This document shows, one piece after another, positions 35,237 to 51,545 of a DNA stretch of 64,000 nucleotides. The stretch comes from Bdellovibrionota bacterium (GTDB lineage: Bacteria; Bdellovibrionota; UBA1018; CAUJDS01). Numbering within the stretch: position 1 is the first letter of the stretch; every line of letters starts with the position of its first letter. The notes below the pieces were generated by a model, which worked only from the letters and a program-made list of their open reading frames with translations, ran no database searches and was not told the DNA's origin. Both the position numbers and the translations under genes were made by a program. The DNA lies in contig CAUJDS010000011.1 of the NCBI GenBank assembly GCA_963169695.1, positions 57,001 to 121,000 of the forward strand, given 5' to 3'.

Positions 35237-36513
35237 AAGACGCCTACGTCCTCTCGGTTCTGCATTCCTCGAAACCGCATGGTCTCCAATCGCTGGTAGG
35301 CCAACGCACGCGCCTCTTCCAATTTTGGCGCCTGTCCCAATGCACCAAGTACGCGTCCTCCAGAAGTCACGCCGGGTTCTTTCATACCAGCAACAAATCC
35401 AGAGGGATCTTGGCACGACCGAAGCGACTCCTTCCACTTCCAACCCGAAACAGAATCACCTTTCACGGGCGCATCAGGATATCCTTCGGCGGCACCGACG
35501 ACATAGACTGCCGCGCGATCATGAAATCCAACACGCACCTGATCGTGTTGCCATCCTTCGCCCGTAGCTACTCGCATAACCCATTGCCAAAGATCGTCTT
35601 TCATACGCGGAAGCAAGACTTGCGCTTCTGGATCTCCGAGCCTTGCATTGAATTCCAAAACCGAGAGCCGCTGCGTACTAGAATTGAAAATCAATCCTGC
35701 ATAGAGGATTCCATGAAATGGGGTTCCGCGCTTTTTCATTTCATGAAGCACAGGAAGGAACACATCCTTTCGCACTCGCTCAAAAGCTTCTTCTGTTTGA
35801 AACAAAGCGACTGGACTGTAGGCGCCCATGCCACCCGTATTAGGACCTAGGTTTTTGGTTTGGAGGCGCTTGTAATCTCGAGAAGTATCCCAAAGCGCTA
35901 CGCGATCACCGCGACAGAACGCCATCCAAGAAACCTCTTCTCCCTCTAAAAACTCTTCAATGACGACGTTGCCCGACAATTCCAATAGTGTCTCTAACGC
36001 CTGACTTGCATCCTTGCGTGTCGAGCAAATCTTGACGCCTTTGCCGAGTGCGAGTCCGTCTGCTTTGATCACCCAAGGAGACTTGAATCGATCGAGCGCA
36101 CGCTCACCCGCACTTCGATCTGTGACGCTGACCCAAGCGGCTGTATCAACCTTTGCAGCTTGCATGATTTCTTTTGCAAAGGACTTGCTGGATTCTAATT
36201 TTGCGCCGGTCGCGAGCGGTCCAAGTGCTGGAATACCTGCTGCTACGAAGTGATCGCAGAGCCCTTGAGCAATGGGATCATCTGGCCCAACCACTGCACA
36301 TTGAACACCTTCGGTTTTTGCTCGCTGAACGATTTCTTCAAATCCAATTTCTGGATTCCAAACTTCGAGCGACCATTGGGATTCTTTTTCTGGAACGGCT
36401 GCAATATGAGACGCCACCCAAATGAGTCGAGTCACCTCAGTCGACTGCGCCAACTTCCAAGCCCACGCGTGCTCTCTCGCACCAGAGCCATAAAGAAGGA
36501 CCGTCGCTCCCAC
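35233..36513 (-). CDS. purD: Phosphoribosylamine--glycine ligase.
   Basis: ATP-grasp. VLLYGSGAREHAWAWKL N-terminal motif. The start is probably a GTG at about 36513 that overlaps the purC stop (TAGTG); the exact start is uncertain. Confidence 0.82.
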   Translation of the reverse strand: MGATVLLYGSGAREHAWAWKLAQSTEVTRLIWVASHIAAVPEKESQWSLEVWNPEIGFEEIVQRAKTEGVQCAVVGPDDPIAQGLCDHFVAAGIPALGPLATGAKLESSKSFAKEIMQAAKVDTAAWVSVTDRSAGERALDRFKSPWVIKADGLALGKGVKICSTRKDASQALETLLELSGNVVIEEFLEGEEVSWMAFCRGDRVALWDTSRDYKRLQTKNLGPNTGGMGAYSPVALFQTEEAFERVRKDVFLPVLHEMKKRGTPFHGILYAGLIFNSSTQRLSVLEFNARLGDPEAQVLLPRMKDDLWQWVMRVATGEGWQHDQVRVGFHDRAAVYVVGAAEGYPDAPVKGDSVSGWKWKESLRSCQDPSGFVAGMKEPGVTSGGRVLGALGQAPKLEEARALAYQRLETMRFRGMQNREDVGVL

Positions 36514-37793
36514 TAGCTTCCCTCCATATGGACAGAGTATTCTTGCAGCACCCGATCGAGTGACCACGCTTGAGCAAACCAACGTTTGCCCGTGAGTTCA
36601 TTGGCGAGTGCTTGATAAAGCTGAGAAACCCATTCACGCTTGGCCTTCGGGAGGGACTGGGGCTGCTCAGCAACTAATTTTTTCCAATCCAAGATCCCTT
36701 TGGCCTTGGCCTCCTCTTTTGCTCGCTCTACGCCTTGATACCAACTCGTTGTACGGTAATGCGAACGAAGCGCTTCCTTCGAAAGTTGAATGCCGTTCTT
36801 GAGGATCCGTAGTTCATCCGGACCAATCGCATCCACGAGCATCAACTCCCCAGTCTCCGTCAAACCCCATTCGAGTTTTCCGTCAGCGAGTTCGAGGCCC
36901 GATCGAGCGCAAAGGTCTTTGAGGTAGCCAGCCACCCAAACGGTCTTTAAGAAAAGCTCCTCAAGAATCCTCGCAGGAATTCCACAGAGATTGATGGCTT
37001 CGGTGGTTCCGATCCTACGATCTTCGGATTCGAGCTTCGTCGAAAACTCGATCACCGGAAAATCCCACTTCGTGCCGGGTTCTACTCCACGCGCCATGAC
37101 CTCAGGAGGTAGCGCAAGGTTCTTCCAATAATCCGCGTGTTTTTGAACGTAAGAAACCAAAGAACTTCCCGGTGGGCACGAAAAACGAAACAGAACCTCA
37201 AGTGGAATCAACCGAGGAGGCTTGGTCGCCCGGACGGGCGAGTAATCCAAGACCGAGCGCCCCAAAAAGACATCCTCTCTCGGGCGCTCTACTGCTACCT
37301 TCCGCACCACGAGGTGCCGAAAAACCTCGGGATCTGGCTTTTCAAATAGTTCACTCGAGAGCCTTGGCTGAACACCCCCACCATCCATCAAAGAAGCCAC
37401 CAACGAAGATGGTGCAACCCCAAGCATGTGAGTGAGGAGACCTTTTTGCTTCAGCACCTCACCGATTTCATTGAAGGTTGAATTGATTGAGACGGGCTCT
37501 GCAGTCTTACGTTTGGGACTCGCTGCTCCCAGGGCTGACATACCTTTGCGAATCTGCAGTGCGGTCTCTGATTTCGAGAATCGCTCCCACGATCGAGGAT
37601 CCTGCAACCGCTCGTACCAGCAAGCTGCGAGAATGGCCAATGCAGCGCCTTTTTCTGGAAGGAGGTCGGGCATCCTTCCCCAATCAAATACCGAATAAGC
37701 GTCCGTATAGTGAAAGAGGAGCGCGTCCGAGCCTTCAAATTGAACGGGTCCCAGTACGTCTTTGACGGATCCACGATAAAGGGTAGAAATCAC
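36513..37793 (-). CDS. purC: SAICAR synthetase (phosphoribosylaminoimidazole-succinocarboxamide synthase), long form with a ~150-aa insertion.
   Basis: MISTLYRGSVKDVL, IPLEVLFR, LADGKLEWG and LVDAIGPDELRI match PurC motifs. 426 aa against the usual 240-300. Confidence 0.75.
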   Translation of the reverse strand: MISTLYRGSVKDVLGPVQFEGSDALLFHYTDAYSVFDWGRMPDLLPEKGAALAILAACWYERLQDPRSWERFSKSETALQIRKGMSALGAASPKRKTAEPVSINSTFNEIGEVLKQKGLLTHMLGVAPSSLVASLMDGGGVQPRLSSELFEKPDPEVFRHLVVRKVAVERPREDVFLGRSVLDYSPVRATKPPRLIPLEVLFRFSCPPGSSLVSYVQKHADYWKNLALPPEVMARGVEPGTKWDFPVIEFSTKLESEDRRIGTTEAINLCGIPARILEELFLKTVWVAGYLKDLCARSGLELADGKLEWGLTETGELMLVDAIGPDELRILKNGIQLSKEALRSHYRTTSWYQGVERAKEEAKAKGILDWKKLVAEQPQSLPKAKREWVSQLYQALANELTGKRWFAQAWSLDRVLQEYSVHMEGS

Positions 37794-37808
37794 TCTCTCT
37801 CCTCCAAG

Positions 37809-39296
37809 TTAATTCGAAGTGGAGCGGCGATCGGATTCTCTCGTTTCCGCAAATCGCAGCCCCGTAGCTACATCGGTAGGATATTTTCCATTGAGGCATG
37901 CCATACAGGGATTACTAATCTTCTTGTTCCCATTGGCACTTTCTTCGATCGACTTTTGAAGGCCCTCTTCCGTGATATAAATCACAGCATCCGCACCTAA
38001 CAAAGATTCAATCTCGGCATTGCTACGCTGATAGGCCACCAACTCTGACCCACTAGGAAAATCAATGCCATAATAACAGGGGTTCTTAATGGGAGGACAG
38101 GTCGATACAAAATAGACTTTCTTCGCCCCTGCATTGCGCACGTGCTGAATCAAACGTGTGGAAGTCGTTCCACGAACAATGGAATCATCGACCAAGACCA
38201 CTTCTTTCCCTTTGATCTCGGATTTTACGGGCGAGAGCTTCAACTCTACTGCGCGACGTCTCTTGTCATCAGAATCTAGAATAAAGGTTCGCTTGATGTA
38301 GCGATTTTTAATCAAGACTTCGCGATAGGGAATTCCCAATTCCTCCGAAACTGCAATAGCTGCAATTCGGGAGGTCTCTGGCACCGGCACAATCATATCT
38401 GGTTTGATGCCCCTTTTTGAAAACTCGGCTTTCAATTGCGTAGCGAGGTTCTTTCCTAAATTGATTCGTGTCCGATAGACTGGCGTCTCGTCCAATACCG
38501 ATTCAGGCGATGCAAAATAGACCCACTCAAACATACAAGGTCTGCGAGGCTTTCCGCCCAGCACCTTCGTAAAGACTTCTCCCTTGAGATTGATGGCAAT
38601 CACTTCACCGGGTTCAAGGTTTCGGACAATCTGATAGCCATTGAAATCCAAAGCTACGCTTTCGGATGCAACCATATGCGCTTCACCCGAGGGCAACGAT
38701 CCTTCTTTCTTTCCCCAGATCATCGGACGCAATCCAAGCCGATCTCGAAAGGCGACCATTCCAAACCCTGCAACAAGTAGCGCGACACAGTAGCTGCCGT
38801 TGACATGATCCATAAGGCCACTCACTGCGTGGCAGATCGTCTCGAACTTCAATTCTTCCGTCACTGGACCATGGGCAACAAGTCCTTCAGAAAAGAGATT
38901 CAAAAGAACTTCGCCATCCGAGTGCGAAAGTGGATGCCGCTTGCTTTCTTTGATCTGTCGCTTCAGCAAGTCCGAGTAATTGACGGTGTTTCCGTTTTGC
39001 ACCAATCCAATTCCGTAAGGATAGTTGGAGACAAAGGGCTGAACGTCGCTGAGATCCCCTTTTCCAATGGTAGAATAACGCGCATGACCAATCGCCATCT
39101 CGCCGGTGAGGGTTTCAAATTTCTCTCGAGTAAAAACGGATTCGACTAGTCCTGTATTTCTGACGCGGTGAAAACCTTCTGAGTCATAAGTAAGGATGCC
39201 AGCGGCGTCCTGACCGCGATGCTGCAGCGTAGTAAGCCCAAGAAAGGCTTCCCGAGCTGAGGAAGGAGAACCGATGATTCCGACGACGCCGCACAT
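37809..39296 (-). CDS. purF: Amidophosphoribosyltransferase.
   Basis: MCGVVGIIGSP... N-terminal Cys nucleophile. PRTase domain. 495 aa. Confidence 0.9.
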   Translation of the reverse strand: MCGVVGIIGSPSSAREAFLGLTTLQHRGQDAAGILTYDSEGFHRVRNTGLVESVFTREKFETLTGEMAIGHARYSTIGKGDLSDVQPFVSNYPYGIGLVQNGNTVNYSDLLKRQIKESKRHPLSHSDGEVLLNLFSEGLVAHGPVTEELKFETICHAVSGLMDHVNGSYCVALLVAGFGMVAFRDRLGLRPMIWGKKEGSLPSGEAHMVASESVALDFNGYQIVRNLEPGEVIAINLKGEVFTKVLGGKPRRPCMFEWVYFASPESVLDETPVYRTRINLGKNLATQLKAEFSKRGIKPDMIVPVPETSRIAAIAVSEELGIPYREVLIKNRYIKRTFILDSDDKRRRAVELKLSPVKSEIKGKEVVLVDDSIVRGTTSTRLIQHVRNAGAKKVYFVSTCPPIKNPCYYGIDFPSGSELVAYQRSNAEIESLLGADAVIYITEEGLQKSIEESANGNKKISNPCMACLNGKYPTDVATGLRFAETRESDRRSTSN

Positions 39297-39446
39297 TTTG
39301 CGTCTTGTTTATCATAAACTTTATCGCGTTAGCACTGCTTTTGACGTTTAATACAGAAGTGAATACAATCATTTCCGGGGGGAGGCTTAACTGGTGCTTG
39401 TGGTGCCGGCTAGGTCCATCAACGAATTCACTTCAGATTTGGGGGA

Positions 39447-39677
39447 TTGATGTCTGCTCTTGCTAGTAGCCCGGTAACGGGCGTAATCGATGAGTCCTTG
39501 GTGATCATCGACTTTGGAAGATACGAAGGTCGTACCGTCCGAGATATCGGAGAGGTAGATCCCAGCTTCTATCAACAACTTGCTACCGAAAAGGAGAAGG
39601 GCATCTTTGCGATTCGTCGTCATCGCGACAAGTCGTTTCGGCTCTACATGAATCCTCTGTCTTCACTCGACCAGTGA
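39447..39677 (+). CDS. Small DUF3820-like protein (76 aa). Tentative.
   Basis: DFGRYEGRTVRDIGEVDPSFYQQLA resembles the FGKYKG.TL.E....D..YL.WL motif of the DUF3820/ExoX C-terminal-like family. Convergently overlaps the dapF 3' end by about 15 nt. Confidence 0.35.
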   Translation: MMSALASSPVTGVIDESLVIIDFGRYEGRTVRDIGEVDPSFYQQLATEKEKGIFAIRRHRDKSFRLYMNPLSSLDQ

Positions 39678-40454
39678 GTAGGTCCCGACAAAGACCTCGT
39701 GGGCTGGACCTCGGAGAATAGCTCCGGATCCCGGTCCCAGCCACTCCACAGTGGCTCGCCCACCGGGAAGCTCCACCGTAACGGGAGATTTTCCACCCTG
39801 CAAAGCAATAGCTGCGGCGGCCGACGCACAAGCACCCGATCCACAGGCCAAAGTTGCGCCTGCACCCCGCTCCCAAATCCCGACACGAAGCTGCCTAGGT
39901 CCCTGGACCTCCACCCACTCTACATTAGTTCGATCAGGGAAGTCTGGGTGCACCTCTAACTCCGGGCCCCAGCGCTCCACATCAGCCTGCGTCCAATTTT
40001 GCGCAAAAAGCACGAGATGAGGATTGCCGACATGGACCACCACAGCCGGAATTTCCTGATCGCCGACTCGCATAGTCCTGGGGGGCTTCACATCCAACTC
40101 CCCCATTTCTACGGCCACCCAGTTGGGTGATTCGACACGAAGGGTCTGTTCACCTTTGACGGTGCGTACCTTAGCTACTGGCTTATTCAGAAACACGCCC
40201 ACCGCTCGCAATCCATTGCCGCACATCTCTGCCTGGGACCCATCGGCATTCCAAAATTTTACATGTGCGTCGAGTCCCGATCCATCTGGCAACAATTCGA
40301 TGAGTTGATCGCATCCAATCCCCCAACGGCGATCAGCCATAGCTTTGGCTTGCTGGGACGAGAGTTGCTTTTCTTTTCTTTCCTCGCGATGATCCACCAG
40401 GACGAAATCATTGCCGAGAGCTGTGAGTTTCCAAAATTTGAGTGACCGCACCAA
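39663..40454 (-). CDS. dapF: Diaminopimelate epimerase.
   Basis: 263 aa. FWKLTALGNDFVLVD, an active-site Cys-containing GNG motif, and a duplicated fold. Confidence 0.88.
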   Translation of the reverse strand: MVRSLKFWKLTALGNDFVLVDHREERKEKQLSSQQAKAMADRRWGIGCDQLIELLPDGSGLDAHVKFWNADGSQAEMCGNGLRAVGVFLNKPVAKVRTVKGEQTLRVESPNWVAVEMGELDVKPPRTMRVGDQEIPAVVVHVGNPHLVLFAQNWTQADVERWGPELEVHPDFPDRTNVEWVEVQGPRQLRVGIWERGAGATLACGSGACASAAAAIALQGGKSPVTVELPGGRATVEWLGPGSGAILRGPAHEVFVGTYSLVE

Positions 40455-40521
40455 ACCTCCAAGGGACCTAAGGTTTTGCTATATCCCGTTGGCTCCAGTA
40501 AGATAAAGAGGATTATCTGAC

Positions 40522-42243
40522 ATGAAAGATCTACGCATCCTCAAAAAATTGATCCCCTACCTTCGTCCGTACCTTCGCCTCATCTTGGTGAGCTTGGCCC
40601 TAAGCATTCCGCTATCCCTTCTTCGCACAAGCCCGGTTGTGATCGTCAAGTATTTAGTAGACCAATTCCTAATCAAAAAAGAAGCCAAGTACCTCTACCT
40701 CTTTCCACTCGCGGTGATCGGGATCTTTGGCTTGAACTTCGTGATTCGTTTTTTTCACTACTACTGCCTTCGCGTGGTGATTGTTCGAGTCAATCAAAAG
40801 ATCAAAAACGACGTCTACCAACACCTCTTAGGGCTTTCTCCCGATTACTTCACTCAGCAGAGCACGGGGTCGCTGATGTCTCGCGTGGCCAGCGATCCAC
40901 AGTACATCGATGGCGGACTTTCTTGTCTCAATGTTCTGATACGAGAACCGCTGACTTTTACCTTTCTTTTGGGAGCCGCATTCTACCTCAATTGGAAGCT
41001 TACGCTCATTACGCTGGCGATTTTTCCGATGCTGGCTTGGGTTTTTCGAGCCACGGGCCGCAACCTCAAACGCTACATCCACCGCATGACAGAAGAGAGC
41101 GAGCGCGTTTTCTCCCACCTTCAAGAAGCGTTTACTGGATTTCGAGTGATCAAACTGTTTCGGCTCGAAAAGTATGTGCGCAAGAAATTCAGAAACCGAA
41201 CGGAAGAATTTTCTCGTATCGCGCTTAAGACTGCCGTCTTAGAAGAAATTGCGCACCCGGCGGTAGAGCTGATCACGGCATTTGCTATTGCAGGTGTTAT
41301 CTACTCAGGCGGATCCATGGTCTTGAGCGGTACCATGACGTCGGGCGATCTTCTGGCTTTCTTCACCGCATTTGCAATCATGATTGATCCCATTCGCAAG
41401 CTCAATGACGTCAACATCAAGCTCCACCAAGCCGCAGCTGCTACCGAGCGGGTCATGGATATTCTCTCCTGGAAGTCACGTTTGCCGCAAAGCCAGCATC
41501 CTTCTCGCCTTCGCAGCTTCGAAGACAGCATCCGGTTTGAAAAGGTAAGCTTCGCGTATCCAGACCAGCCCGACCGCATGGTGCTGAAGAACCTTTCTTT
41601 TAACCTAAATAAAGGCAGTGTCATTGCGTTGGTGGGAGCCAGCGGCTCTGGCAAGAGTTCTGCGACTTATCTGATGGCTCGTCTTTATGACGTTTCCGAA
41701 GGAAGGATCTTGATGGATGGACACGACATCCGTAACCTTCCAGTAGAGGACCTTCGCAACCTTATTTCGGTAGTGAGCCAAGATGTCTTTCTGTTTAATG
41801 ACACCATTGCCGAGAACATTCGATGCGGAAAACTCGGTGCGGGGATGGACAAGATTCGAGAAGCTGCCCAGAAAGCCAATGCCCTTGAGTTTATTGAAAG
41901 TATGCCCGAAGGCTTTAACTCGATCATCGGAGATCGCGGAATCAAACTTTCTGGTGGAGAACGTCAGCGCATATCGGTAGCACGCGCGTTCTTGAGGGAA
42001 GCGCCACTTTTGATTTTGGATGAAGCAACGTCCAACTTGGATACCGTTGCAGAACGTGCCGTTCAAACGGCCTTAGAGGACTTGATGGCGGATCGTACAA
42101 CGTTGATTATCGCCCATCGACTGTCCACGGTACGAAAGGCCAACGAGATTCTCGTCCTCAAACACGGATCCGTTATTGAGCACGGTACCCACCAGTCCCT
42201 CCTCGACCACTCCGGTGAGTACGCCCGCTTCCACGCGCTCTAA
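40522..42243 (+). CDS. msbA: ABC transporter permease/ATPase fusion, MsbA-like lipid exporter family.
   Basis: 573 aa. Six-TM N-terminal domain. Walker A GASGSGKSS. LSGGERQRISVARA signature. Walker B ILDEATSNLD. Confidence 0.75.
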   Translation: MKDLRILKKLIPYLRPYLRLILVSLALSIPLSLLRTSPVVIVKYLVDQFLIKKEAKYLYLFPLAVIGIFGLNFVIRFFHYYCLRVVIVRVNQKIKNDVYQHLLGLSPDYFTQQSTGSLMSRVASDPQYIDGGLSCLNVLIREPLTFTFLLGAAFYLNWKLTLITLAIFPMLAWVFRATGRNLKRYIHRMTEESERVFSHLQEAFTGFRVIKLFRLEKYVRKKFRNRTEEFSRIALKTAVLEEIAHPAVELITAFAIAGVIYSGGSMVLSGTMTSGDLLAFFTAFAIMIDPIRKLNDVNIKLHQAAAATERVMDILSWKSRLPQSQHPSRLRSFEDSIRFEKVSFAYPDQPDRMVLKNLSFNLNKGSVIALVGASGSGKSSATYLMARLYDVSEGRILMDGHDIRNLPVEDLRNLISVVSQDVFLFNDTIAENIRCGKLGAGMDKIREAAQKANALEFIESMPEGFNSIIGDRGIKLSGGERQRISVARAFLREAPLLILDEATSNLDTVAERAVQTALEDLMADRTTLIIAHRLSTVRKANEILVLKHGSVIEHGTHQSLLDHSGEYARFHAL

Positions 42244-42300
42244 CCCAAAAAGGTGCCAAAAAACGTGTCTCACACGTTTATTGGCACCTATTGAGGAACC
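42244..42300. repeat. Intergenic repeat family, copy 1 (ccaaaaaggtgcc + hairpin + ggcacctattg).
   Basis: Shares the ccaaaaagg, AAACGTGT/ACACGTTT palindrome and ggcacctattg motifs with copies at 43.5 and 44.2 kb. Confidence 0.55.
42256..42283. terminator. Bidirectional rho-independent terminator hairpin between convergent genes.
   Basis: aaaAAACGTGT-ctc-ACACGTTTatt. An 8-bp perfect stem flanked by A and T runs, between the msbA-like stop (42243) and the lipoprotein gene stop (42288). Confidence 0.6.
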
Positions 42301-42884
42301 TCTAGAACTTCATAACTGTAATAACTGCCGTCAAGCGCGCGGTCTTCGAATCCAATCCAAACCTTCTCGCTACTTTCCGCAAGTATTTCAAATTGGTAAC
42401 TCCACCCTGCATCACCACTCAACTGGAATAGGTTGCGAGCTATTCTCTCCCACTTCAGGTCCAAATCCTTGGCATAAACTGGAACTTTCTTAGGAAGGCG
42501 CGGCCCCAAGGAAGAAGTGAAAGCTGCGAAGTCCAGATTTTGAGGTTCAAATCTTGGACTTCCGATAGCCTCATTCAATGCAAGCCCTTGCAGGGCTCCA
42601 AACTCAGCAATTGCACAAACCCGATAGTTCTTAAACTTGTGGAAGCTGGCGGTCGTCTCAGGCAGGGACTGAGCTCGATAAGCCTTTAGCCAGCTCTCGC
42701 AATTGTTGATACCCTTCTTGATCAATGTGCGTTTTATCTTCAGCACCTTTGCGGACTGTGCATCGGCAAGTAAGGCTTTGTCAAAGACTCGAATAGAATC
42801 TTGCTGAGATGTCTGCTGAGCACTCGAACAAGCGGTTGATAGTGCCAACGCAAATAGAAGGACTGCAAAACTACTTCTTCTCAT
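42288..42884 (-). CDS. Lipoprotein of unknown function, co-transcribed with the upstream lysozyme-like gene.
   Basis: Signal peptide and lipobox (ALALSTAC). 198 aa. Start overlaps the upstream gene's 3' end by 14 nt. Confidence 0.5.
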   Translation of the reverse strand: MRRSSFAVLLFALALSTACSSAQQTSQQDSIRVFDKALLADAQSAKVLKIKRTLIKKGINNCESWLKAYRAQSLPETTASFHKFKNYRVCAIAEFGALQGLALNEAIGSPRFEPQNLDFAAFTSSLGPRLPKKVPVYAKDLDLKWERIARNLFQLSGDAGWSYQFEILAESSEKVWIGFEDRALDGSYYSYEVLEVPQ

Positions 42885-43449
42885 TGAAACCCTTCATACC
42901 GGTTAGAAGATCGGCTTCTTTTCTCCTTCTGGTAGGATAGCGATCGCCAAAATTTCTTAGTTCGCTTTCAACCTTTGCCCATTCGTTCTTCTTTACGTGA
43001 TTCCAAAGATTCGGCGCTCGGCGTTCAAGGTTTGGTCCATATTGATAGGAAACAGAAAGAATTACTGTCTGTGCTTCCTGCTCCAGCTCATCAAAACTCT
43101 TGGAGTCTTTCGCATCCCTCGTTCTGTTATATACTTGCCTTATGCGTTCGAGATGCCGCACTTGAATCGCCCGGTCCAGATCTCCGGCCTCAACTGCACT
43201 CAGGACCAGGGGCTTCTTCTTTATAAAATCCACAGCCTTGGACCCTTTTAATCCTAAGTAAGGAGTCAATTTAGTGCGAGTAACATCTTTAATGGATAAA
43301 CTCTTGAGGTCTTCGGCACTCAACTGCCCCAAATCCACCCCAGTTGCTGCAGTTACACCACTTCCACTGGCACTCGAATCTGGTACGTAACCCTTGAGCA
43401 CTCGAGCACCTTCTAACGATTCAATAAACCGAAAATCTGGTCTAGCCAT
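42871..43449 (-). CDS. GH24 (phage T4-type) lysozyme-like protein.
   Basis: N-terminal FIESLEGARVLKGYVPD...SGVTAATGVDLG matches the catalytic Glu/Asp region of GH24 lysozymes (EGxRLxAYxD). C-terminal ...ILSVSYQYGPNL...W..V......W.......RR..E..LL matches the GH24 C-lobe pattern. No signal peptide. Confidence 0.55.
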   Translation of the reverse strand: MARPDFRFIESLEGARVLKGYVPDSSASGSGVTAATGVDLGQLSAEDLKSLSIKDVTRTKLTPYLGLKGSKAVDFIKKKPLVLSAVEAGDLDRAIQVRHLERIRQVYNRTRDAKDSKSFDELEQEAQTVILSVSYQYGPNLERRAPNLWNHVKKNEWAKVESELRNFGDRYPTRRRKEADLLTGMKGFNEKK

Positions 43450-43500
43450 GAAGTCGAGCTAGCCCTCCAATTAGCCAAAGTCAACGAAACACAGCAATAG

Positions 43501-43545
43501 CTATGACGCGCCTCGGGCCAAAAAGGTGACGGGCACCTTTTAAAA
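43501..43545. repeat. Intergenic repeat family, copy 2 (tgacgcgcctcgggccaaaaagg + hairpin).
   Basis: The 23-mer tgacgcgcctcgggccaaaaagg (43504-43526) is identical to 44172-44194. It is followed by the hairpin AAAAGGTG-acggg-CACCTTTT. It lies in the divergent region between the lysozyme-like gene and the 43557 lipoprotein gene. Confidence 0.55.
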
Positions 43546-43556
43546 AGGTCTTCAAT

Positions 43557-44162
43557 ATGCTAATGCCCGGCAATATGAAAATATTACTCAGAATGCTCCT
43601 TTTATCCCTTCTGCCGGCCGCCTGTGCCACTCCCCGTTTTGATGCACGAATAGAGCCCAATCAGGGTGACTCTGCTCAAATCAATGCGGCAATCGATGGT
43701 GTAACAGAAGAGCAGGAGAACGAAATCAAAGTCCATATGGGAAGCTTGCCAGCTGGAGTTCGAATCAATGGGGAAACGGTCGAACTCAGCAGTTCCTCAC
43801 CTCTAAAATATTTAGGACCAGTTCATACGACAGGTGGAAGTGGAGTTTTTCAATGGTCCTTCAACGATGACCGTACCGAGTGGTGCAGCGTTAGTAACGT
43901 TCTTACCATCGCTACAGGCTTCCTCTGGTCAATTTTGCCAATGCACTATCCTTGTTGGCCGTCTTACACATCAGACAGCCTCGAATCTGTCGAAATGAGG
44001 AAAACACACCTCCTTCGCGCGCTTAAGCGTGCGACCGTTGCAGCCGGAGGAAGTATTTTAGTCGTAAGATCGTTCGGACGAGTCGAAATCTTCAATGGCT
44101 TGACCGGCCATCACCTCGATTCAACCGAAATGGTCAATGCGCAAGGCTGGGCTTTCAAATAG
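43557..44162 (+). CDS. Lipoprotein of unknown function (201 aa).
   Basis: Signal peptide and lipobox (LLSLLPAAC). Confidence 0.45.
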   Translation: MLMPGNMKILLRMLLLSLLPAACATPRFDARIEPNQGDSAQINAAIDGVTEEQENEIKVHMGSLPAGVRINGETVELSSSSPLKYLGPVHTTGGSGVFQWSFNDDRTEWCSVSNVLTIATGFLWSILPMHYPCWPSYTSDSLESVEMRKTHLLRALKRATVAAGGSILVVRSFGRVEIFNGLTGHHLDSTEMVNAQGWAFK

Positions 44163-44169
44163 CGGAACA

Positions 44170-44270
44170 ACTGACGCGCCTCGGGCCAAAAAGGAAAAAA
44201 CGTGTGAGACACGTTTTCTGGCACCTATTGGCACGTTTTCTGGCACCTATTGGCAGCACCTATTGGCACC
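44170..44270. repeat. Intergenic repeat family, copy 3: 23-mer, inverted hairpin and tandem 21/22-bp direct repeats.
   Basis: tgacgcgcctcgggccaaaaagg (44172-44194). The hairpin AAACGTGT-gag-ACACGTTT (44198-44216) is the exact reverse complement of the 42.26-kb hairpin. cgttttctggcacctattggca occurs twice in tandem, followed by a third partial gcacctattggcacc. Confidence 0.6.
44195..44220. terminator. Bidirectional rho-independent terminator hairpin between convergent genes.
   Basis: aaaaAAACGTGT-gag-ACACGTTTtct between the 43557..44162 (+) gene and the 44272..47349 (-) gene. Confidence 0.55.
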
Positions 44271-44271
44271 T

Positions 44272-47200
44272 TTATTCCGCTTTGGAAGAAGTGCTGCGGT
44301 AGCGGGCGGCGGCTTCTTTGAGTTCGTCTTTTTTTGCAATGAGGCTACTGGAAATGGATTCGCAACTCGCATCTCCATCATCCATTTTTGATTCACCGGT
44401 TGTCTTCTTCTCAGCGGTCTTATCTCTATTGGCCCGCAAGTCTCGCAAGTCAGCATTCTTTTCTTCTTTTTCTTTTTCTATACGGTCTATTTCATCTTGG
44501 AGATTCTTGCCATTGGCTGAATCAAACGCCGCTTTTCTAAAATCATATTCTCTTTGATCTCTTCTTGCAGCATCCTCCGCTGCGGTCACTTTCGATCGAA
44601 GCTCGTTGTATTCAGCATTCAGTTGGTTTAATACACTTTCAGCTCGAGTCTTATCACTCTGTAATCTTGGCACTTTCTCTGGGTTTTTCTTATCGCCTTC
44701 GGTTGCCTCATAAAAAGCTTTGTCGGCATTTTTTAAAGCCTCATTTGCCACAAACCAGCCACTGCTATCACCAGATTTTTTAAAATTATTTAACCGAGCT
44801 GAAAGCACCTCCAACTCGGACTTCGAGGTCAACCACGTTTTTTCAATTGCTTGAAAATTGGTCTCTTTAGTACCGTAGCTCGCATCATTCTTCGACTTGA
44901 GCGCCGCCAGGTCGGACTTCAACTTTCGAATTTCCTCTTCAGCATCTTTCACTTTCTTCTCAGAACTTGCAATGGAAGCCAGGTCCCTAGCATTACTAGT
45001 CCCAGTCACTTTGCTCACGCCAGATCTCAGGATATCTGCGATATCCCGTGGCAGGTCATTGATCACAAGCTCCATATTCGACGTAAATTCTTTGAGTCGG
45101 TCGGTACCACCAAATTTATCTTCCATCCATGCGCAGGATTCCTTGAACTTGATACCAAGGGCTTCAAGTTCCTTGGCTTTGTCCTTCAAGCGATCCAAAG
45201 AACATTCGGACTTCAGCTCTTCGATTTCTTGAGAGACTTTGGCGATCTTCTGATTCTCTTTTTCTAATTCGGCTGCCTTCTCAGTGACCTTAGACAACTC
45301 ACCATTGAGGTCGCTCGAACCAAAATCAATCAACGGAGTACCTTGCATTTGTCCCGCAATAAGCCCCATAACATTCGTGCTTTTGCCCGGAATAGTAATC
45401 GGTTCGCCACTTGCTGTTTTTCCGACAACCTCTTGTGGTGCCTCAACCGGCGAAATGTACTTAAACCGAAAACCACCCGAAACTCTCAAGTCTTTTCCCG
45501 ATAGGTATTTGGATATCTTATCCAGCTGAGTCTTGATACTAGCAGCGTCTCCCGCAGGCCCACTGAGTGCCTGGCCAATAGTTTTGAGCTTGGTCGTGTA
45601 GCGTTCTTCCGCCAATCTCGCTGCCTCTTGCTGATTGCTTCGTACTTCGTTCACCGTGCGAATAAAATTGGTCGTCTGCTGCTGAAGGTTGCTAATAAAC
45701 CCTTCGATTCCTGCTCCGGGAATGGTCAAATTCTTTACGTAAGTGCCACCCTTGAAAGTCATGCTCGTAACCGAGACCTGGGGGTCGTCGCCGCGAACCA
45801 GAGAGCCCAATGTTTTTTTGAGGTCATTCAGGCAATTTTCTTCTGCATAGCCCAATGAGCTATCACACTGTTTGGTAGGAATGGCCACGTGGCCAGCACC
45901 TAGGACGCGCGCCACATTTTGAATATCAGCGGTATACTGCCCCAACATGGTCTGCGCAATTTGTTTGGAGGTTCGGCGAGTTTCTTCAATCTCTCGCTTC
46001 TTGTTGGCCAATGGGGTGCCTTCTTGTTTGGTACGACTGTTCACCGTCTTAAAGGCTGCGCTATAACAACCGCTCACTGCTGCATTGAGGAATCCTAGCA
46101 GATTGATTCCCGGCGTACTGATTCCAGAAAAGCGCTTGTTCAAGGTGGCAATCAATTCTTCCTTGGACATGATATTGAACGTCTGCCCGCCATAAGCTTC
46201 GGCAGCCTGAGGATTGGTAGCCGCACCTTTGGTCTTTGGCACATCCCCAAAAAGGCGTGCTAGCTGACTCTTCACCAAATTAGCGGTACTTGCGGCAGAT
46301 TTTTTATTAGCTGTACGGGTCTTGGCCTGGCCATCCTCGCCACGAAGGGATTCTTGCTCAATGCGTTCCAACAAAGCTTGCTCTCGACTACAAGAAACCG
46401 TTTGGCCAAGTTGCTCGCCTTTTCCAAGACACTTCATATTTGGGTCTGGTGTCTCTCGGAAGCAACGCTCAGTCTCTTCCATAATGGAGACGGACCATTG
46501 TTGATTGTATTCGGTGACTTTCTTTCTGAGATCCGACATAGCACGACTAACAACGGCTGAATCATTTTCGAGGCGGACGTTGAAATCTCCCTGGCCACGG
46601 GCCAACTTTTCTTTGAGTTGAAGGAGTCCGTCCTGTCCAACGGCTGGATTACCCGAAAGCTTAAGTTGAACTTCTTGTTGCTGCTGACCCAATTCTTCGA
46701 GCGCCTGACGATAGCCTTTTTGTACACGAAGGTTTTCGTCTACTTCCGATTGAAGGGGCGAGGCCAAAGAAGACGCGAATTGCTGAAAACTGCTGCCCTT
46801 TTCTACCAGACAAGCTACTTCCTGTTGCACGTAGTTGGCTTTGTTGATCTTACAAATATTGGCTTCTATTGCTGCCGCGTTATCTTGAATCAAACTACTC
46901 GTGGCCTTGAGACTAAAAACTCCCGTCTTATCTTTTACTGAAGAGGAGCTACAAGAAGGCGCAGATAGCACGGGGGTCACTTCCGGACAGTCGACTTCTA
47001 GCCCCATCGCGTTCTGCGCGCTACCGACGAAGGCTGAGTTAGAAATCTTCTTTGCTTTGGTATCTGTATAGCCAAGGTCCTCGTCTTCCGTAGCCTTTGG
47101 CGCTGCTTTGCTTTGCCTTGCTACTTGAATCACTTTACCTGTCAGACATTGATAGGGAAGCGACGGAGATGCTAGCCCGGTCAAATTGACATTGGACGAT

Positions 47201-47349
47201 GAGAAGTTGGTGGAAGGTCCCCAGGCAGCCGGCAAGTTTACCGAGGGCGCATTCACTGCAGCTGCATGGGCAAAAAGCACAACTCCTAAACCCGTAGGAA
47301 TAAGAAATCCAATGACCATTGCAAAATGAGGACGAAACAAACCCCGCAA
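44272..47349 (-). CDS. Large secreted coiled-coil protein (1025 aa), unknown function.
   Basis: N-terminal signal/TM (VIGFLIPTGLGVVLFAHAAAV). Long K/E/Q-rich predicted coiled-coil segments. Multiple Cys pairs. No recognisable catalytic domain. GC lower than its surroundings. Confidence 0.6.
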   Translation of the reverse strand: MRGLFRPHFAMVIGFLIPTGLGVVLFAHAAAVNAPSVNLPAAWGPSTNFSSSNVNLTGLASPSLPYQCLTGKVIQVARQSKAAPKATEDEDLGYTDTKAKKISNSAFVGSAQNAMGLEVDCPEVTPVLSAPSCSSSSVKDKTGVFSLKATSSLIQDNAAAIEANICKINKANYVQQEVACLVEKGSSFQQFASSLASPLQSEVDENLRVQKGYRQALEELGQQQQEVQLKLSGNPAVGQDGLLQLKEKLARGQGDFNVRLENDSAVVSRAMSDLRKKVTEYNQQWSVSIMEETERCFRETPDPNMKCLGKGEQLGQTVSCSREQALLERIEQESLRGEDGQAKTRTANKKSAASTANLVKSQLARLFGDVPKTKGAATNPQAAEAYGGQTFNIMSKEELIATLNKRFSGISTPGINLLGFLNAAVSGCYSAAFKTVNSRTKQEGTPLANKKREIEETRRTSKQIAQTMLGQYTADIQNVARVLGAGHVAIPTKQCDSSLGYAEENCLNDLKKTLGSLVRGDDPQVSVTSMTFKGGTYVKNLTIPGAGIEGFISNLQQQTTNFIRTVNEVRSNQQEAARLAEERYTTKLKTIGQALSGPAGDAASIKTQLDKISKYLSGKDLRVSGGFRFKYISPVEAPQEVVGKTASGEPITIPGKSTNVMGLIAGQMQGTPLIDFGSSDLNGELSKVTEKAAELEKENQKIAKVSQEIEELKSECSLDRLKDKAKELEALGIKFKESCAWMEDKFGGTDRLKEFTSNMELVINDLPRDIADILRSGVSKVTGTSNARDLASIASSEKKVKDAEEEIRKLKSDLAALKSKNDASYGTKETNFQAIEKTWLTSKSELEVLSARLNNFKKSGDSSGWFVANEALKNADKAFYEATEGDKKNPEKVPRLQSDKTRAESVLNQLNAEYNELRSKVTAAEDAARRDQREYDFRKAAFDSANGKNLQDEIDRIEKEKEEKNADLRDLRANRDKTAEKKTTGESKMDDGDASCESISSSLIAKKDELKEAAARYRSTSSKAE

Positions 47350-47598
47350 GACACATCCCCCGATACCTTATTATTTTACAGGGTTAATAGCGGATTTGAA
47401 AAGGGAAACTACCATCCGCTTGCCCAATCCGAGAAGCCGTTGAGTTACAGGCAAGTAGTCAAAGAACTGTCGGATTTTTAGACAGGGACTGTTTAGCGAT
47501 TGGACAGCGGAAGTGGTTTGCCGAATGCACGATGAAAATCATACGTCATTAAGAAGCTCCTTGAAGTCTGCAGAGGTTTTCACCGGAGCCACCCGGCC

Positions 47599-49262
47599 CC
47601 AGCAAGGCGGGTTTGATTCTTGGAAGTGGGTAATGGATGACAGGAAGGGGAGCAGCGAGGGAGGCAAAATTGAAAGAGTATTTTCAGTAAGGACCCGTGA
47701 ATACTCGTTTCATTGACTCCCTTTCTGCGCGCGAAATGGAAAGGAATTTTTCATCATCCTATTTGTAATTCAGAATTTTTCTCAAATTTTCTGTCATTTT
47801 TGCTTGACCGAGTTTTTTTATAAAAGGGTATTCTTCATTCAGTAAATCCAAGCAATGCGTAATGTCCTATTGCACGCGCATAATGCCTCAGTAGAGCATC
47901 GTTCGCTTAGCAATCCTCCGGGCTCATTTGAATGCTTGTATCGAGTCTCCTATAGAAGACTAAGGACTAAATATTCGACCAAAAATTCCGTGATAAGTAG
48001 TTTCGAAGAAAAAGAAACGGAGAAATGCAATGCTGCAAAATGAATCCACTCAAGCGTCAAAGATTAAAAATATTAGCACAGAACAATCGCCTTCTAGCCT
48101 CAAGGGATTGTCGGATTCTCAGTTGCAGCTTCGAATCCGAGAGCTTGCCAAAGCGGAACAGAGACTGACTTTACAAGTGCTGCTTCACCTCAAAGAAATC
48201 TCCGATCGCAAGCTCCATGCAAAGCTTGGATATGCTTCCTTATGGGAATATGCGGTGAAAGAACTAGGCTATTGCGAGGCTTCCGCTTCCTCTCGTATTG
48301 CGGCGATGCGACTGATGGTGAGTGTTCCAGAAGCTAGGACTCAGATCGAAAACGGGAAACTCACACTTTCTCAGGCAGCAAGGATTCAGCAGTTTATTCG
48401 CAAGGAGAATCAAGTTTCTTCTCAGCCCATTACGAAAAGCGAAACCAAAGCAATCATCCAGGCCTCCGTAGGTACTTCCATCCGAGAGACCCAGAGGATG
48501 CTCGAAGCCAAAGCCCAAGAACGAAGACCCAGCCTGATTGCAGAAAAGCCGAATCAACCTACTATCTCCTTCCAAGCCGATGAAGAAACCATGCAAATGC
48601 TAGAAAGGCTCCGAGAGCTGCGTGGAAACTTGGGAGCCTTGGAGTTATTTAAGCTAAGCCTGAGAACCACTTTAGACAAACTCGATCCACTCCGAAAGAA
48701 GCAGAAGGTAATAGGAAATAGCAAACCAGATCCATCCCTTTTTGCGCAGAAACCCGAGGATGATTGCCTCGTTTTTGATAGGAATTTATGCCCAACTTCT
48801 CCGAAGCCTTCACGCTTTATTCCGCAATGGATTCGGATCGAAGTGGCTAAGCGTAGCAAAGGCCAGTGCGAGTACCATAGTCCTTTAAACGGCAAGCGAT
48901 GCGAGAGTCGGTACCGCGTTCAATACGACCACATTGTGCCGATTGCTCGTGGGGGAGTAGGAACGCTAGCTAACATTCAGCACCTTTGCGGACTGCACAA
49001 TCGTACAAAGGGGGTGCAGATGGAGGCTGCGTACTTCGGGGTAGGACATGCAGTTGCGCCACCAGAAAGAAGAAGCTAATTTTGGTACTTATAGTGAGTA
49101 CGCGCGCGCGAAGAAGGGAAATGTTTTGATTGGCTAACAGGCAACTGTAAAATGCATGAATGTTTTGCAATTTTGAACCTACTTTTTGCACCCCCTCACC
49201 CTTGCTGTTCTCCATCCTGTCATCCATTGCTAACTTCCAAGAATCAAACCCGCCTTGCTGGA
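47599..49262. mobile_element. TIR-bounded cassette carrying an HNH endonuclease gene (putative small mobile element).
   Basis: Left repeat 47599-47655 (ccagcaaggcgggtttgattcttggaagtgggtaatggatgacaggaaggggagcagc). The right repeat 49201-49262 is its imperfect reverse complement. The first 29 bp are identical and overall identity is about 85% over about 60 bp. The pseudo-ORFs 47513..47716 (+) and 48970..49269 (-) encode the same QQGGFDSWK.MDDR peptide because of this symmetry. Confidence 0.6.
48030..49079 (+). CDS. HNH endonuclease domain protein (C-terminal HNH, N-terminal ~250 aa uncharacterised).
   Basis: C-terminal CEYHSPLNGKRCESRYRVQYDHIVPIARGGVGTLANIQHLCGLHNR is an HNH motif (CxxH..C...DHIxP...GG...N...LC..HN). 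Confidence 0.8.
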   Translation: MLQNESTQASKIKNISTEQSPSSLKGLSDSQLQLRIRELAKAEQRLTLQVLLHLKEISDRKLHAKLGYASLWEYAVKELGYCEASASSRIAAMRLMVSVPEARTQIENGKLTLSQAARIQQFIRKENQVSSQPITKSETKAIIQASVGTSIRETQRMLEAKAQERRPSLIAEKPNQPTISFQADEETMQMLERLRELRGNLGALELFKLSLRTTLDKLDPLRKKQKVIGNSKPDPSLFAQKPEDDCLVFDRNLCPTSPKPSRFIPQWIRIEVAKRSKGQCEYHSPLNGKRCESRYRVQYDHIVPIARGGVGTLANIQHLCGLHNRTKGVQMEAAYFGVGHAVAPPERRS

Positions 49263-49465
49263 GTTGCACTGGTGCTATTTAGGGTCGTTGAATGGTCAGT
49301 GGCTTAGAGGAAGATGCCTACCAGGAACAAGCGGAACGATGCTCTCCTGTAGATTCGCATAAAGCTACGATGAATCACGTCCTCCCTGCGAGGGCTAACG
49401 AGAATGGGCCTGGGCTCGAATTATTTCTTGCAAGCCCGAGTTGGGTTCATTAAACCCAAGAAATC

Positions 49466-49936
49466 ATGAAACGACGCTATTGGATCCTAAAGAACGAAGT
49501 GACGGACTACTCCATCGATGAAATGAAAAAAGACGGACAGACCGATTGGACGGGAGTCCGCAACTACCAGGCTCGTAATTTTATGATGAAGGACATGAAA
49601 GCTGGAGACTGGGCCTACTTCTACCACAGCAATGCTGAGCCTCCGGGATGCGCCGGCATTATAGAGATCTCTCGCGAAGCAAAGCCCGACCTCACGGCAC
49701 TAGACCCCAAGAGCAAATACTTCGAAAAGCGGGCCACCAAGGAAAACCCTGTATGGCATTGTGTTCAAGTAAAGTTCAAACGAAAGCTGAAGCGTCTCGT
49801 ACCCCTCAGCGAACTTCGAGAAAACCCAAAGCTCAAAGACCTCTTACTTCTCCAACGAGGAAGTCGACTTTCGATCACGCCCGTCAGCCAAGAAGCATTT
49901 GAAGAAATAGAAAGAATGTCCAAAGAGATCCGATAG
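49466..49936 (+). CDS. EVE domain protein (PUA-like, DUF55).
   Basis: 156 aa. MKRRYWILKNEVTDYSIDE...WTGVRNYQARNFMMKDMKAGDWAYFYHS...GCAGIIEISREAKPD... matches the EVE/thymocyte-nuclear-protein-1-like fold signature. Confidence 0.8.
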   Translation: MKRRYWILKNEVTDYSIDEMKKDGQTDWTGVRNYQARNFMMKDMKAGDWAYFYHSNAEPPGCAGIIEISREAKPDLTALDPKSKYFEKRATKENPVWHCVQVKFKRKLKRLVPLSELRENPKLKDLLLLQRGSRLSITPVSQEAFEEIERMSKEIR

Positions 49937-49940
49937 TGCT

Positions 49941-51545
49941 TTATCGCCTTCCAAATACAACATCCAAAGCACACCGAATCAAGGAACGCCTTTCAACGCT
50001 CTTTGAAGACTCCTTGCCTTTATCCGGATCCAAGAGTGGCTCGAGAAAGGACCTCAGGGCCAACTGACCTTTTGCCTCATTGGTATAGAAATCATGCAAC
50101 ACCGCCTGACCGGGTTTGACCCAGGCCAGAGTGGATTGATCAGTCCCAAGTACCAGCGTCTTTTGAAAGTCCGCGTGGAGGTTAGCCATATGCAAAAATC
50201 CACTATCTTGGGTAATTATGGCGCTGGCTTCTTTCATTGCTGAATACCATATGGGTTTGAGGTCCGGCTCGGCTGGAAGGAATGCAAGCTTGCCTGTTTG
50301 CTCTTGGTATTTTTTCAAAAATGCTTCCGCCTTTGCATAAGCTGATTGAATAGCTTTTTGTTCTTCAGCGTAGTGCTGCGAACTTGGATTCTCCAGTGGT
50401 GTAACTATAATGCGGGTACGGGGATTGACCGAATGGACCGTGCGAAGGATCGCTTCCAGTGCTGCATCTACCTTAGGTCCAATAACCGCCGTCTTAAAGG
50501 TTCCAGCTGTGTTGAGATTCAAAACAAGTAGTGGACCGTCCTGTGACCGAAAGGACGAGCTCAAAAAAGCCCTCCATGCGTTCTCTTCCGCGGGCATTTT
50601 CAACAAAGTGGCCGGAATATGAAAGTCCACGGGAGTCCCAAACAGCACGCCACTTTGCATGCCACTCACTTCATAATTAGACCTGCTCCTGCCAATAAAC
50701 AGATCCTTCCACTTGTCCCAAATCTGATGCCCTGATTCCTGATGACTCGTTTCAATCAGAGAACGCTGAGCTGGGGTGAGGTTCTTGTTCCAAGAGTAAA
50801 CCTCCGCAAGTCCCCCTTCCGTCAGAATCGCCGTCCCTTCTATCGCCTTCAGACGATCTCGGATCGCTTTCTTTACGTGATGGGCTACCCAGCTACTTGC
50901 TTGAGCAATTCTCTCGTTAGATCGCTTGTCAAAAGGTAGTTTCTCTCGCAATCGCCTACGAATTACCGTATTAACAATTTCTCCATCCAAATAACTCGCG
51001 TCCACATAGTAAAGCGTCGTGGGATGTTGAAGTGGCGCCAGCATCTTGCCAAGAAAAGGCTCTAGCTCCCACTTCCAACTCACTGGTGATTTGAAATCGG
51101 TATCCGCCGCATACCGTTCAATTTGACTAAAGACATCCTGACCAATGACTTCCGGAAGCCTCATCGGCTCCAATATCAATCCGCGCTGCGCTCTCAGAAT
51201 ATCTACAAACGGGCTGGTTACGTGCAAAGGAGTTGTTGGAAAAGCGGACTGAATCCCATTCAGCGCCGAAAATCCAAATAGCACCGTATCGCCAAGGTAG
51301 GAGCGATAGCTCAAGAGATGTACCTTCTCCCAAGGCAACCTGATCAATCCGGTAGCCTCTACCATGCTTCGAGGCAAGGGTCCCGTTATCCCAGCAACAC
51401 GCAGGAAATCCGCCCAAAATCCGGGTGGAACCTTCCGGGGTTCCGCTGCAAACACGGAGACCTGCAAGGCCAAGAAAAGGCACAAAAACAAATGTCGCTT
51501 GCAGTGCCGGCCTATGAACTTCTTGAAGAACATCCCTTTCCTCAC
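49941..51545 (-). CDS. Secreted hypothetical protein with a GT9 (heptosyltransferase)-like C-terminal region.
   Basis: Signal peptide (LFLCLFLALQVSVFAA). C-terminal ...IITQDSGFLHMANLHADFQKTLVLGTD resembles the GT9 xTNDSGPMHLAAA...LFG motif. The N-terminal half has no known domain. Confidence 0.4.
   Translation of the reverse strand: MRKGMFFKKFIGRHCKRHLFLCLFLALQVSVFAAEPRKVPPGFWADFLRVAGITGPLPRSMVEATGLIRLPWEKVHLLSYRSYLGDTVLFGFSALNGIQSAFPTTPLHVTSPFVDILRAQRGLILEPMRLPEVIGQDVFSQIERYAADTDFKSPVSWKWELEPFLGKMLAPLQHPTTLYYVDASYLDGEIVNTVIRRRLREKLPFDKRSNERIAQASSWVAHHVKKAIRDRLKAIEGTAILTEGGLAEVYSWNKNLTPAQRSLIETSHQESGHQIWDKWKDLFIGRSRSNYEVSGMQSGVLFGTPVDFHIPATLLKMPAEENAWRAFLSSSFRSQDGPLLVLNLNTAGTFKTAVIGPKVDAALEAILRTVHSVNPRTRIIVTPLENPSSQHYAEEQKAIQSAYAKAEAFLKKYQEQTGKLAFLPAEPDLKPIWYSAMKEASAIITQDSGFLHMANLHADFQKTLVLGTDQSTLAWVKPGQAVLHDFYTNEAKGQLALRSFLEPLLDPDKGKESSKSVERRSLIRCALDVVFGRR

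Follow-up and report, generated by a model that had tools for sequence, protein, structure and literature searches.

Probable inversion of a lysozyme operon segment across complementary arms of local terminator-like hairpins in an uncultured Bdellovibrionota bacterium

Probable inversion of the lysozyme operon segment

Three intergenic gaps located within 2 kb of a 64,000-nucleotide stretch of a Bdellovibrionota genome (assembly GCA_963169695.1, contig CAUJDS010000011.1, positions 57,001 to 121,000; the entire stretch is hereafter called the window) share a set of short repeats. The first of them (gap1) separates an ABC transporter gene on the plus strand from a convergent two-gene operon on the minus strand, here termed the lysozyme operon, that encodes a 198-aa lipoprotein and a pesticin-like muramidase. 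The second (gap2) lies between this operon and a divergent plus-strand gene for a 201-aa lipoprotein, and the third (gap3) between the latter gene and a convergent minus-strand gene for a 1015/1025-aa protein. The three gaps contain degenerate, collinear copies of one quasi-palindromic hairpin that resembles an intrinsic terminator. We consider it rather likely that the lysozyme operon segment was inverted across a 10-bp repeat formed by the arms of two of these hairpins, and that the shared motifs are local hairpin copies, not members of a genome-wide family or sites for a regulator.

Metagenome contigs from four sequencing runs (ERR15459719 and ERR10643333-35) were identified by an exact-protein look-up of the identical ABC transporter. 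Two of these contigs, L055 and L056, match the window at 99.99% identity, and both end at position 42277. A third contig, L054 (ERR15459719, 23.7 kb), is 99.07% identical to positions 30522-42257 of the window, with 109 single-base differences in a gapless alignment over 11.7 kb, and is a distinct strain. After ...CTCTAACCCAAAAAGGTGCC, which corresponds to the window up to position 42257, L054 reads CGTCACCTTTTTGGCCCGAG, that is, the reverse complement of 43512-43531 (20/20). In a strain 99% identical to the window, the end of the ABC transporter gene with the adjoining AAAAGGTGCC is joined to sequence that in the window lies more than one kilobase downstream and in the opposite orientation.

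The junction coincides with one copy of a perfect inverted repeat (I17). The left copy, AAAAGGTGCC (42248-42257, plus strand), marks the left breakpoint, and the right copy, GGCACCTTTT (43532-43541, plus strand), which is 100% complementary to it, is the presumed right breakpoint. The L054 junction and the presence of a perfect 10-nt inverted repeat exactly at this point are therefore as expected from an inversion of 42258-43531. The oppositely oriented segment comprises 1,274 bp and includes the inner hairpin of gap1, the genes of the 198-aa lipoprotein and the muramidase, the region upstream of them and the first copy of a 23-mer. A second short inverted repeat (I14) is formed by the 11-nt sequence TTGGCACCTTT (44263-44273, plus strand) with 42249-42259; no rearrangement was seen across this repeat.

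The junctions of the window are designated J1 and J2, and those of the inverted arrangement J3 (...CTCTAACCCAAAAAGGTGCCCGTCACCTTTTTGGCCCGAGG) and J4 (...AAACGTGTGAGACACGTTTTTTGGCACCTTTTAAAAAGGTCTTC). The inverted form is expected to show the end of the ABC transporter gene plus AAAAGGTGCC followed by CGTCACC at one side, and ...ACACGTTTTTTGGCACCTTTTAAAAAGG at the other. In a simulated de Bruijn graph with k=31, the window sequence alone produces no branch in this region. When both orientations are mixed, the contigs of the flanks break off precisely 20 nt beyond the repeat. These simulated ends are those observed: L055 and L056, which have the window orientation, stop at 42277, and L054, which has the other one, likewise stops 20 nt beyond the repeat. 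Judging from the contig ends, both arrangements appear to coexist in all four samples.

Anatomy of the three hairpin copies

All the shared modules are parts of a single 38-nt arm, X (TGACGCGCCTCGGGCCAAAAAGGTGCCAAAAAACGTGT), and its reverse complement. The sequence-only reading of this region had listed a 23-mer, a palindrome of two 8-bp halves around a 3-nt spacer with complementary loops, and a tandem 22-nt unit as modules common to the three gaps. All of them exist, they are far beyond chance expectation, and every one maps onto X or its reverse complement. The 23-mer, TGACGCGCCTCGGGCCAAAAAGG, is found in two exact copies at 43504-43526 and 44172-44194; tolerating as many as three mismatches reveals no third copy in the window, and 100 shuffles produced none. 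The palindrome AAACGTGT-N3-ACACGTTT is located at 42261-42279 with the loop CTC, and at 44198-44216 with the loop GAG. No third match was found in the window even at two mismatches, and 0.03 occurrences are expected. The motif GGCACCTATTG has exact copies at 42283, 44220 and 44242 and a one-mismatch copy, AGCACCTATTG, at 44255, in an array that terminates in GGCACCTTTAT. Tandem Repeats Finder resolved this array into a 22-nt unit, CACGTTTTCTGGCACCTATTGG, repeated 2.1 times at 44210-44255 with 100% matches, and a 13-nt unit repeated twice at 44243-44268. A shorter motif, CCAAAAAGGTGCC, is present in gap1 as reported, with its start at 42245 instead of 42246. Upstream of both 23-mer copies, only AATAGC is held in common.

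In gap1, the left arm (42231-42268, plus strand) matches X at 30 of the 38 positions and includes the final codons of the ABC transporter gene together with its stop codon. Its ACGCGC block and CCAAAAAGGTGCCAAAAAACGTGT are identical to X, and the mismatches comprise two positions at the start and the block TCTAAC in place of CTCGGG, a stretch that includes the ABC stop codon. The entire left arm is kept and is followed by the loop CTC and by 21 nt of the right arm (19/21), which reaches the stop codon of the 198-aa lipoprotein gene. The hairpin formed by these elements (42251-42289) consists of an outer stem, AGGTGCCAA/TTGGCACCT, and an inner stem, AAACGTGT/ACACGTTT, closed by the loop CTC and with a single A.A mismatch at 42260/42280.

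In gap2, positions 1-27 of X are preserved (26/27), followed by one G and by the middle of the right arm (10/10), with the loss of the inner 25 nt. The first 23-mer copy, at 43504-43526 on the plus strand, constitutes the outer part of arm X and stands as an unpaired arm in the divergent gap of the window. The remaining hairpin, AAAAGGTG-ACGGG-CACCTTTT (43521-43541), has eight perfect pairs and lacks the inner palindrome. The gap3 copy is composed of the second 23-mer (23/23; 44172-44194, plus strand), the inner arm without TGCC (11/11), the loop GAG and the right arm (19/21). Its hairpin, AAAACGTGT-GAG-ACACGTTTT (44195-44219), is flanked by A and T runs, and a fragment of its right arm is duplicated in tandem over 44210-44268 (plus strand), with two copies of 22 nt and then two of 13 nt.

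The best blastn alignment between gap1 and gap3 is found in inverted orientation (28/29, E = 3e-9), as expected if gap1 lies within a flipped segment. The inversion would also explain the resemblance of the left flank of gap1 to the 23-mer (15/23), as both would be arms of one hairpin.

Folding and terminator character

The gap1 hairpin has a plus-strand folding energy of -27.7 kcal/mol and a minus-strand one of -32.4 kcal/mol, with a z-score of about -6.8, and represents the third most stable 44-nt segment in the 64 kb. The gap2 hairpin is weak in the context of the window (-14.2 kcal/mol, z -0.7). For gap3, a terminator scan flags the minus strand as terminator-like with 11 pairs, and the minus-strand z is -3.6. 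A stable stem-loop immediately after a stop codon is found in gap1 and gap3, and for gap2 only in the inverted arrangement. On the minus strand, UUUUUGGG comes after the stem in gap1, and UUCCUUUUUGG in gap3.

From these features of the sequence, a role of the hairpins in terminating or insulating transcription is probable. The description of gap1 and gap3 as bidirectional terminators agrees with their position between convergent genes, with the terminator-like stem and with the minus-strand U-tract; it holds less well for the plus strand, where the U-tract is poor. Across the other 27 intergenic gaps of the window, perfect stems of 7 bp numbered only three, all weak, and canonical hairpin terminators seem rare in the source genome. 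The three related hairpins stand out in this genome because perfect stems of at least 7 bp are nearly absent from those 27 gaps. As in intrinsic terminators between convergent genes, the stem-loops are stable, are flanked by an A-run and a T-run and are placed immediately after stop codons, and the minus-strand versions of gap1 and gap3 carry the canonical U-tract. Unlike usual intrinsic terminators, three of them share one arm sequence within 2 kb, the gap2 copy has nothing to terminate in the window arrangement, and the plus-strand U-tracts are weak.

Consequences of the proposed flip for the hairpin arms

Arms of different hairpins are complementary and could consequently act as short inverted repeats. 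Recombination across the 10 bp of AAAAGGTGCC and GGCACCTTTT would flip the segment between them, so that the window would represent one orientation of the lysozyme operon segment and the L054 strain the other. The flip would exchange the partners of the arms. A long hairpin would form immediately behind the ABC transporter gene, with the reverse complement of the 23-mer as its right arm. The loop of the gap1 hairpin would change from CTC to GAG, and this hairpin would then adjoin the 201-aa lipoprotein gene on its upstream side, oriented like the paralogous copy in gap3. Read in this other orientation, the gap1 hairpin is AAACGTGTGAGACACGTTTTTTGGCACCT, a direct repeat of the gap3 copy (28/29). 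The inversion would account for the reverse-complementary loops CTC and GAG, as the gap1 hairpin sits inside the segment proposed to have flipped. In this respect the notion that the same element is present inverted was literally right, as the gap1 hairpin belongs to the segment that is oppositely oriented in the 99%-identical strain. An inversion restricted to the loop (CTC versus GAG) was also considered, with hand-counted alignments of 40/45 in direct and 34/50 in inverted orientation, and was dropped as L054 shows that the whole hairpin is flipped.

The inversion likewise accounts for the 23-mer that is orphaned in the divergent gap, since the other orientation places its reverse complement after the ABC stop codon. 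In the inverted arrangement this reverse complement pairs with 42233-42255. The J3 pairing sets ACGCGC TCTAAC CCAAAAAGGTG against CACCTTTTTGG CCCGAG GCGCGT, with 11 + 6 bp around a 6-nt bubble, and has a folding energy of -24.7 kcal/mol (z -4.3); the J4 fold reaches -25.8 kcal/mol (z -6.1). The gap2 copy, which lies in a divergent gap as described, is better read as a hairpin arm orphaned by the inversion than as a promoter element. The inverted arrangement would give both junctions a symmetric and strong hairpin and would make the four genes from the ABC transporter through the 201-aa lipoprotein co-directional. Because one junction of the window order is a weak leftover with an orphaned 23-mer, the L054-type order is probably ancestral and the window orientation derived.

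Searches for further copies and for a regulatory site

Using blastn with 7-nt words, no significant copy of any of the gaps was found in the rest of the 64 kb. Neither the GTDB representative genomes (one per species, 185,579 species) nor IMG/VR gave a match to the hairpin pattern AAACGTGTNNNACACGTTTNNTGGCACC; IMG/VR yielded two 17-mer matches. In JGI metagenomes, a 20-nt core of the 23-mer was matched twice, each time within GC-rich coding sequence of unrelated organisms, and these are only chance hits. These collections do not include the source genome. The searches of the window, GTDB, IMG/VR and JGI gave no support for a dispersed repeat family. GTAG and CTAC are absent from all three gaps. 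The modules have no terminal inverted repeats or target-site duplication, and the collinear hairpin copies have no duplicated flanks. A Pfam scan of about 47 proteins of the window detected no RAYT- or transposase-like protein, and Rfam gave no match at E <= 1 within 41500-48500.

Intergenic gaps at the 3' ends of genes hold an imperfect palindrome some 80 nt long. This is reminiscent of a REP/REPIN- or MITE-like element family, as had been suggested from the sequence; its other members would lie beyond the window, and the additional branch points of the metagenome contigs (43509-43544 shared with another context) could reflect more copies. We regard this explanation as improbable. Three copies are clustered within 2 kb with none in the other 62 kb, no exact match of the pattern exists in the representative genomes or IMG/VR, the only JGI matches are those due to chance, and GTAG, terminal inverted repeats, target-site duplications and a transposase-like protein are all lacking in the sequences scanned. 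The REP, BIME and REPIN elements of Proteobacteria are likewise imperfect intergenic palindromes, often located between convergent genes, and REP elements can function in mRNA 3' untranslated regions (bioRxiv 10.64898/2026.03.23.713779). Unlike those elements, the copies described here are clustered, not dispersed in 64 kb, and come without GTAG and without a RAYT-type transposase. It is hardly credible that AAACGTGT-N3-ACACGTTT is instead an operator bound by a dimeric regulator that co-regulates the flanking genes. Such a transcription-factor box would accord with a perfect 8-bp inverted repeat that has a 3-bp spacer and occurs twice, against 0.03 expected. Both palindromes, however, lie at the 3' ends of convergent genes rather than in promoters, are nested in longer RNA-type stems with A and T runs on their flanks, and have no third copy in 64 kb at two mismatches, and the palindrome is absent from the divergent promoter gap. 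A candidate sigma-54 promoter, TGGCACCTATTGGCA, was rejected: its GG-to-GC spacing is 9 instead of 10 nt, the -12 element is GGCA instead of TTGC, and it would drive antisense transcripts.

Possible mechanism of the proposed rearrangement

The inversion most likely arose sporadically and without the aid of a recombinase, through an exchange between short inverted repeats in DNA able to fold, for example by replication-associated template switching, and the inverted and window orders would now segregate among co-occurring strains. Pfam domains of integrases, resolvases or invertases were absent from the scanned proteins of the window, and the two breakpoint sites share no similarity outside the 10-bp core. 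The locus also shows further marks of hairpin-associated instability, namely tandem duplications with CAC/GGCAC microhomology at their borders, the loss of an internal stretch and a deletion of 4 nt. A sporadic flip is favoured because of these three observations taken together. The situation is comparable to quasi-palindrome template-switch mutagenesis, which likewise acts in imperfect inverted repeats able to fold during replication (PMC7202029; PMC6357072), and the tandem duplications, the internal deletions and possibly a polymorphic A.A mismatch are signs of instability in this locus. Classic template-switch events take place within one quasi-palindrome and change a few bases (PMC7202029; PMC6357072); by contrast, the exchange proposed here would join the arms of two hairpins 1.27 kb apart and invert the DNA between them.

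A site-specific recombinase encoded elsewhere in the genome might instead flip the 1.27-kb segment reversibly and thereby switch the expression of the 201-aa lipoprotein, of the lysozyme operon or of both. The segment would then be an inverton, which we consider possible but on the whole unlikely. An inverted repeat does flank the segment, both junction types are found in natural samples, and the contig ends suggest both orientations within each of the four samples. The adjoining gene encodes an orphan surface lipoprotein, and such proteins are typical targets of phase variation. Flipping would generate TTGGCA-17-CAATAT ahead of the 201-aa gene, and a second segment flanked by inverted repeats is located 3 kb away. 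This candidate promoter at J4, with a spacer of 17 nt, has 8 of 12 matches to the sigma-70 consensus, and the window reads CGGGCA at the position of TTGGCA; the flipped state would set a strong hairpin, but also a better -35 element, before the 201-aa gene. Against a regulated switch, the scanned proteins include no integrase, resolvase or invertase, the entire operon flips together with its upstream region so that no clear on/off logic results, no promoter with at least 9 of 12 consensus matches was found in gap2 in the window state, and the two orientations may merely belong to two co-occurring strains that are 1% apart. Of four inverton features, two are present, namely flanking inverted repeats and both orientations in the data. 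An invertase is not found nearby, and for the fourth, a change of expression with orientation, the sequence offers only the 8/12 candidate promoter. Invertons are invertible segments with flanking inverted repeats that have been catalogued by read-orientation methods (PMC11892184; PMC11602134; bioRxiv 10.1101/2023.03.11.532203). The locus shares with them the inverted-repeat bounds, both orientations in natural data and an adjacent surface-lipoprotein gene. Its repeat, in contrast, has just 10 bp and doubles as the arm of a terminator stem, what flips is a complete operon of two genes (1.27 kb) rather than a promoter, and no invertase is near.

It is quite improbable that the repeats are scars of a gene cassette, in which the 23-mers would be the attachment core duplicated upon integration of the 201-aa gene, and the hairpins attC-like sites. 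Perfect 23-bp direct repeats do surround a single orphan gene, the flanking hairpins are imperfect palindromes, and synteny with the nearest relatives is lost to the right of the ABC transporter gene, where GC is also slightly lower. Yet no integrase was found in the window, the core sites GTTRRRY/RYYYAAC are absent (the only GTT candidate in the gaps, GTTTATT, does not fit GTTRRRY), and the units face opposite ways. The 23-mers become inverted repeats in the other orientation, which makes their direct arrangement a by-product of the flip. Attachment sites at tRNA or tmRNA genes were searched for and none was found. The resemblance to integrons and their attC sites lies in imperfect palindromes between small gene units and in a single gene with identical short repeats; unlike integrons, the locus has no integrase, no conserved core sites, opposed unit directions and no array past two units.

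Several observations weigh against the inversion across local hairpin copies as we propose it. L054 extends just 20 nt past the repeat, and we infer the second junction and the sequence beyond the first one. The contigs of the interior and the right flank end at 42250, 43538 and 43515, versus predicted positions of 42248, 43541 and 43512. These deviating ends (contigs L002-L004 and L001) recur identically in three samples, and extra variants at 42280 (the A.A mismatch), 43508 and 43545, or another copy that shares 43509-43544, would fit them. The plus-strand tails, UAUUGAGG in gap1 and, behind four U inside the stem, CUGGCACC in gap3, are poor U-tracts for a terminator. The search of the source genome covered the 64-kb window of a 185.5-kb contig, and a family beyond the window is still conceivable, though nothing speaks for it. 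Finally, the origin of three hairpin copies within 2 kb is not explained by a sporadic inversion.

Genes around the gaps

The arrangement of the genes, with two convergent gaps and a divergent one, is that described by the sequence-only reading. The ABC transporter gene spans 40522-42243 (plus strand) in the open reading frame layout. The lysozyme operon on the minus strand consists of the muramidase gene (42871-43449; PF16754, E = 3.5e-42) and the gene of the 198-aa lipoprotein (42288-42884), which has the lipobox LSTAC and no family match. The muramidase, whose nearest homologue is only 52% identical and thus offers no sister locus, has no recognisable signal peptide, and its gene overlaps the downstream lipoprotein gene by 14 nt. 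The two proteins look like a lysozyme toxin/immunity pair. The gene of the 201-aa lipoprotein (43557-44162, plus strand) lies between both 23-mers in the window arrangement; a lipobox, LPAAC, is found if translation starts at 43575. A search of 5.8 billion sequences recovered only this protein itself and no other homologue. The gene of the 1015/1025-aa protein (44272-47349, minus strand) has no family match. Duplication of the flanks through paralogy of the lipoproteins was ruled out, as the 198-aa and 201-aa proteins have no BLASTP similarity. The cluster members P0126 and P0127 are short, unrelated proteins.

In the nearest GTDB genomes the ABC transporter is conserved at 57-63% amino-acid identity. 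There is no synteny with these genomes to the right of this gene, where they carry other genes, and the motifs are all absent from them. The region 42000-50000 has a GC content of 0.47-0.48, versus about 0.50 in its flanks, and includes the lysozyme pair, the orphan lipoprotein, the large protein without a family, an HNH protein and an EVE domain, with no synteny to the nearest relatives. It may be a variable island.

A 63-nt inverted repeat is located in the same region, at 47599-47661 and 49199-49261, with 89% complementarity and 29 nt exact. It brackets an open reading frame (48030-49079, 349 aa) with a weak C-terminal HNH match, whose product is on record solely in the source NCBI contig. 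Metagenome contigs of three samples begin at 49232, the break that is expected from a k=31 graph with two orientations and a 29-nt repeat, and other contigs end at 47621 and 47625. The HNH segment may represent a second invertible or mobile segment, at 3 kb from gap3.

Significance

The repeat set is real, non-random and local; its nature is largely explained, and it is a new instance of known phenomena. The complementary arms of paralogous terminator hairpins would here serve as short inverted repeats that flip a toxin-like lysozyme operon between near-identical strains. Terminator palindromes can thus seed small inversions and leave behind orphan arms that may be mistaken for regulatory motifs or mobile repeats, which calls for caution when repeats are annotated from one assembly. 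To our knowledge, phase variation has been little studied in this phylum, and the locus is a candidate for it in an uncultured lineage of predatory bacteria. If the flip were reversible and regulated, the segment would be an inverton with terminator stems as its sites. A programmed, shufflon-like multi-site inversion at the arms of the terminator hairpins, possibly including the HNH segment, seems a long shot for this uncultured bacterium; the flip would then exchange the partners of the terminator arms and so determine whether it is the lysozyme/immunity operon or the orphan lipoprotein that becomes insulated, read through or supplied with a -35 element.

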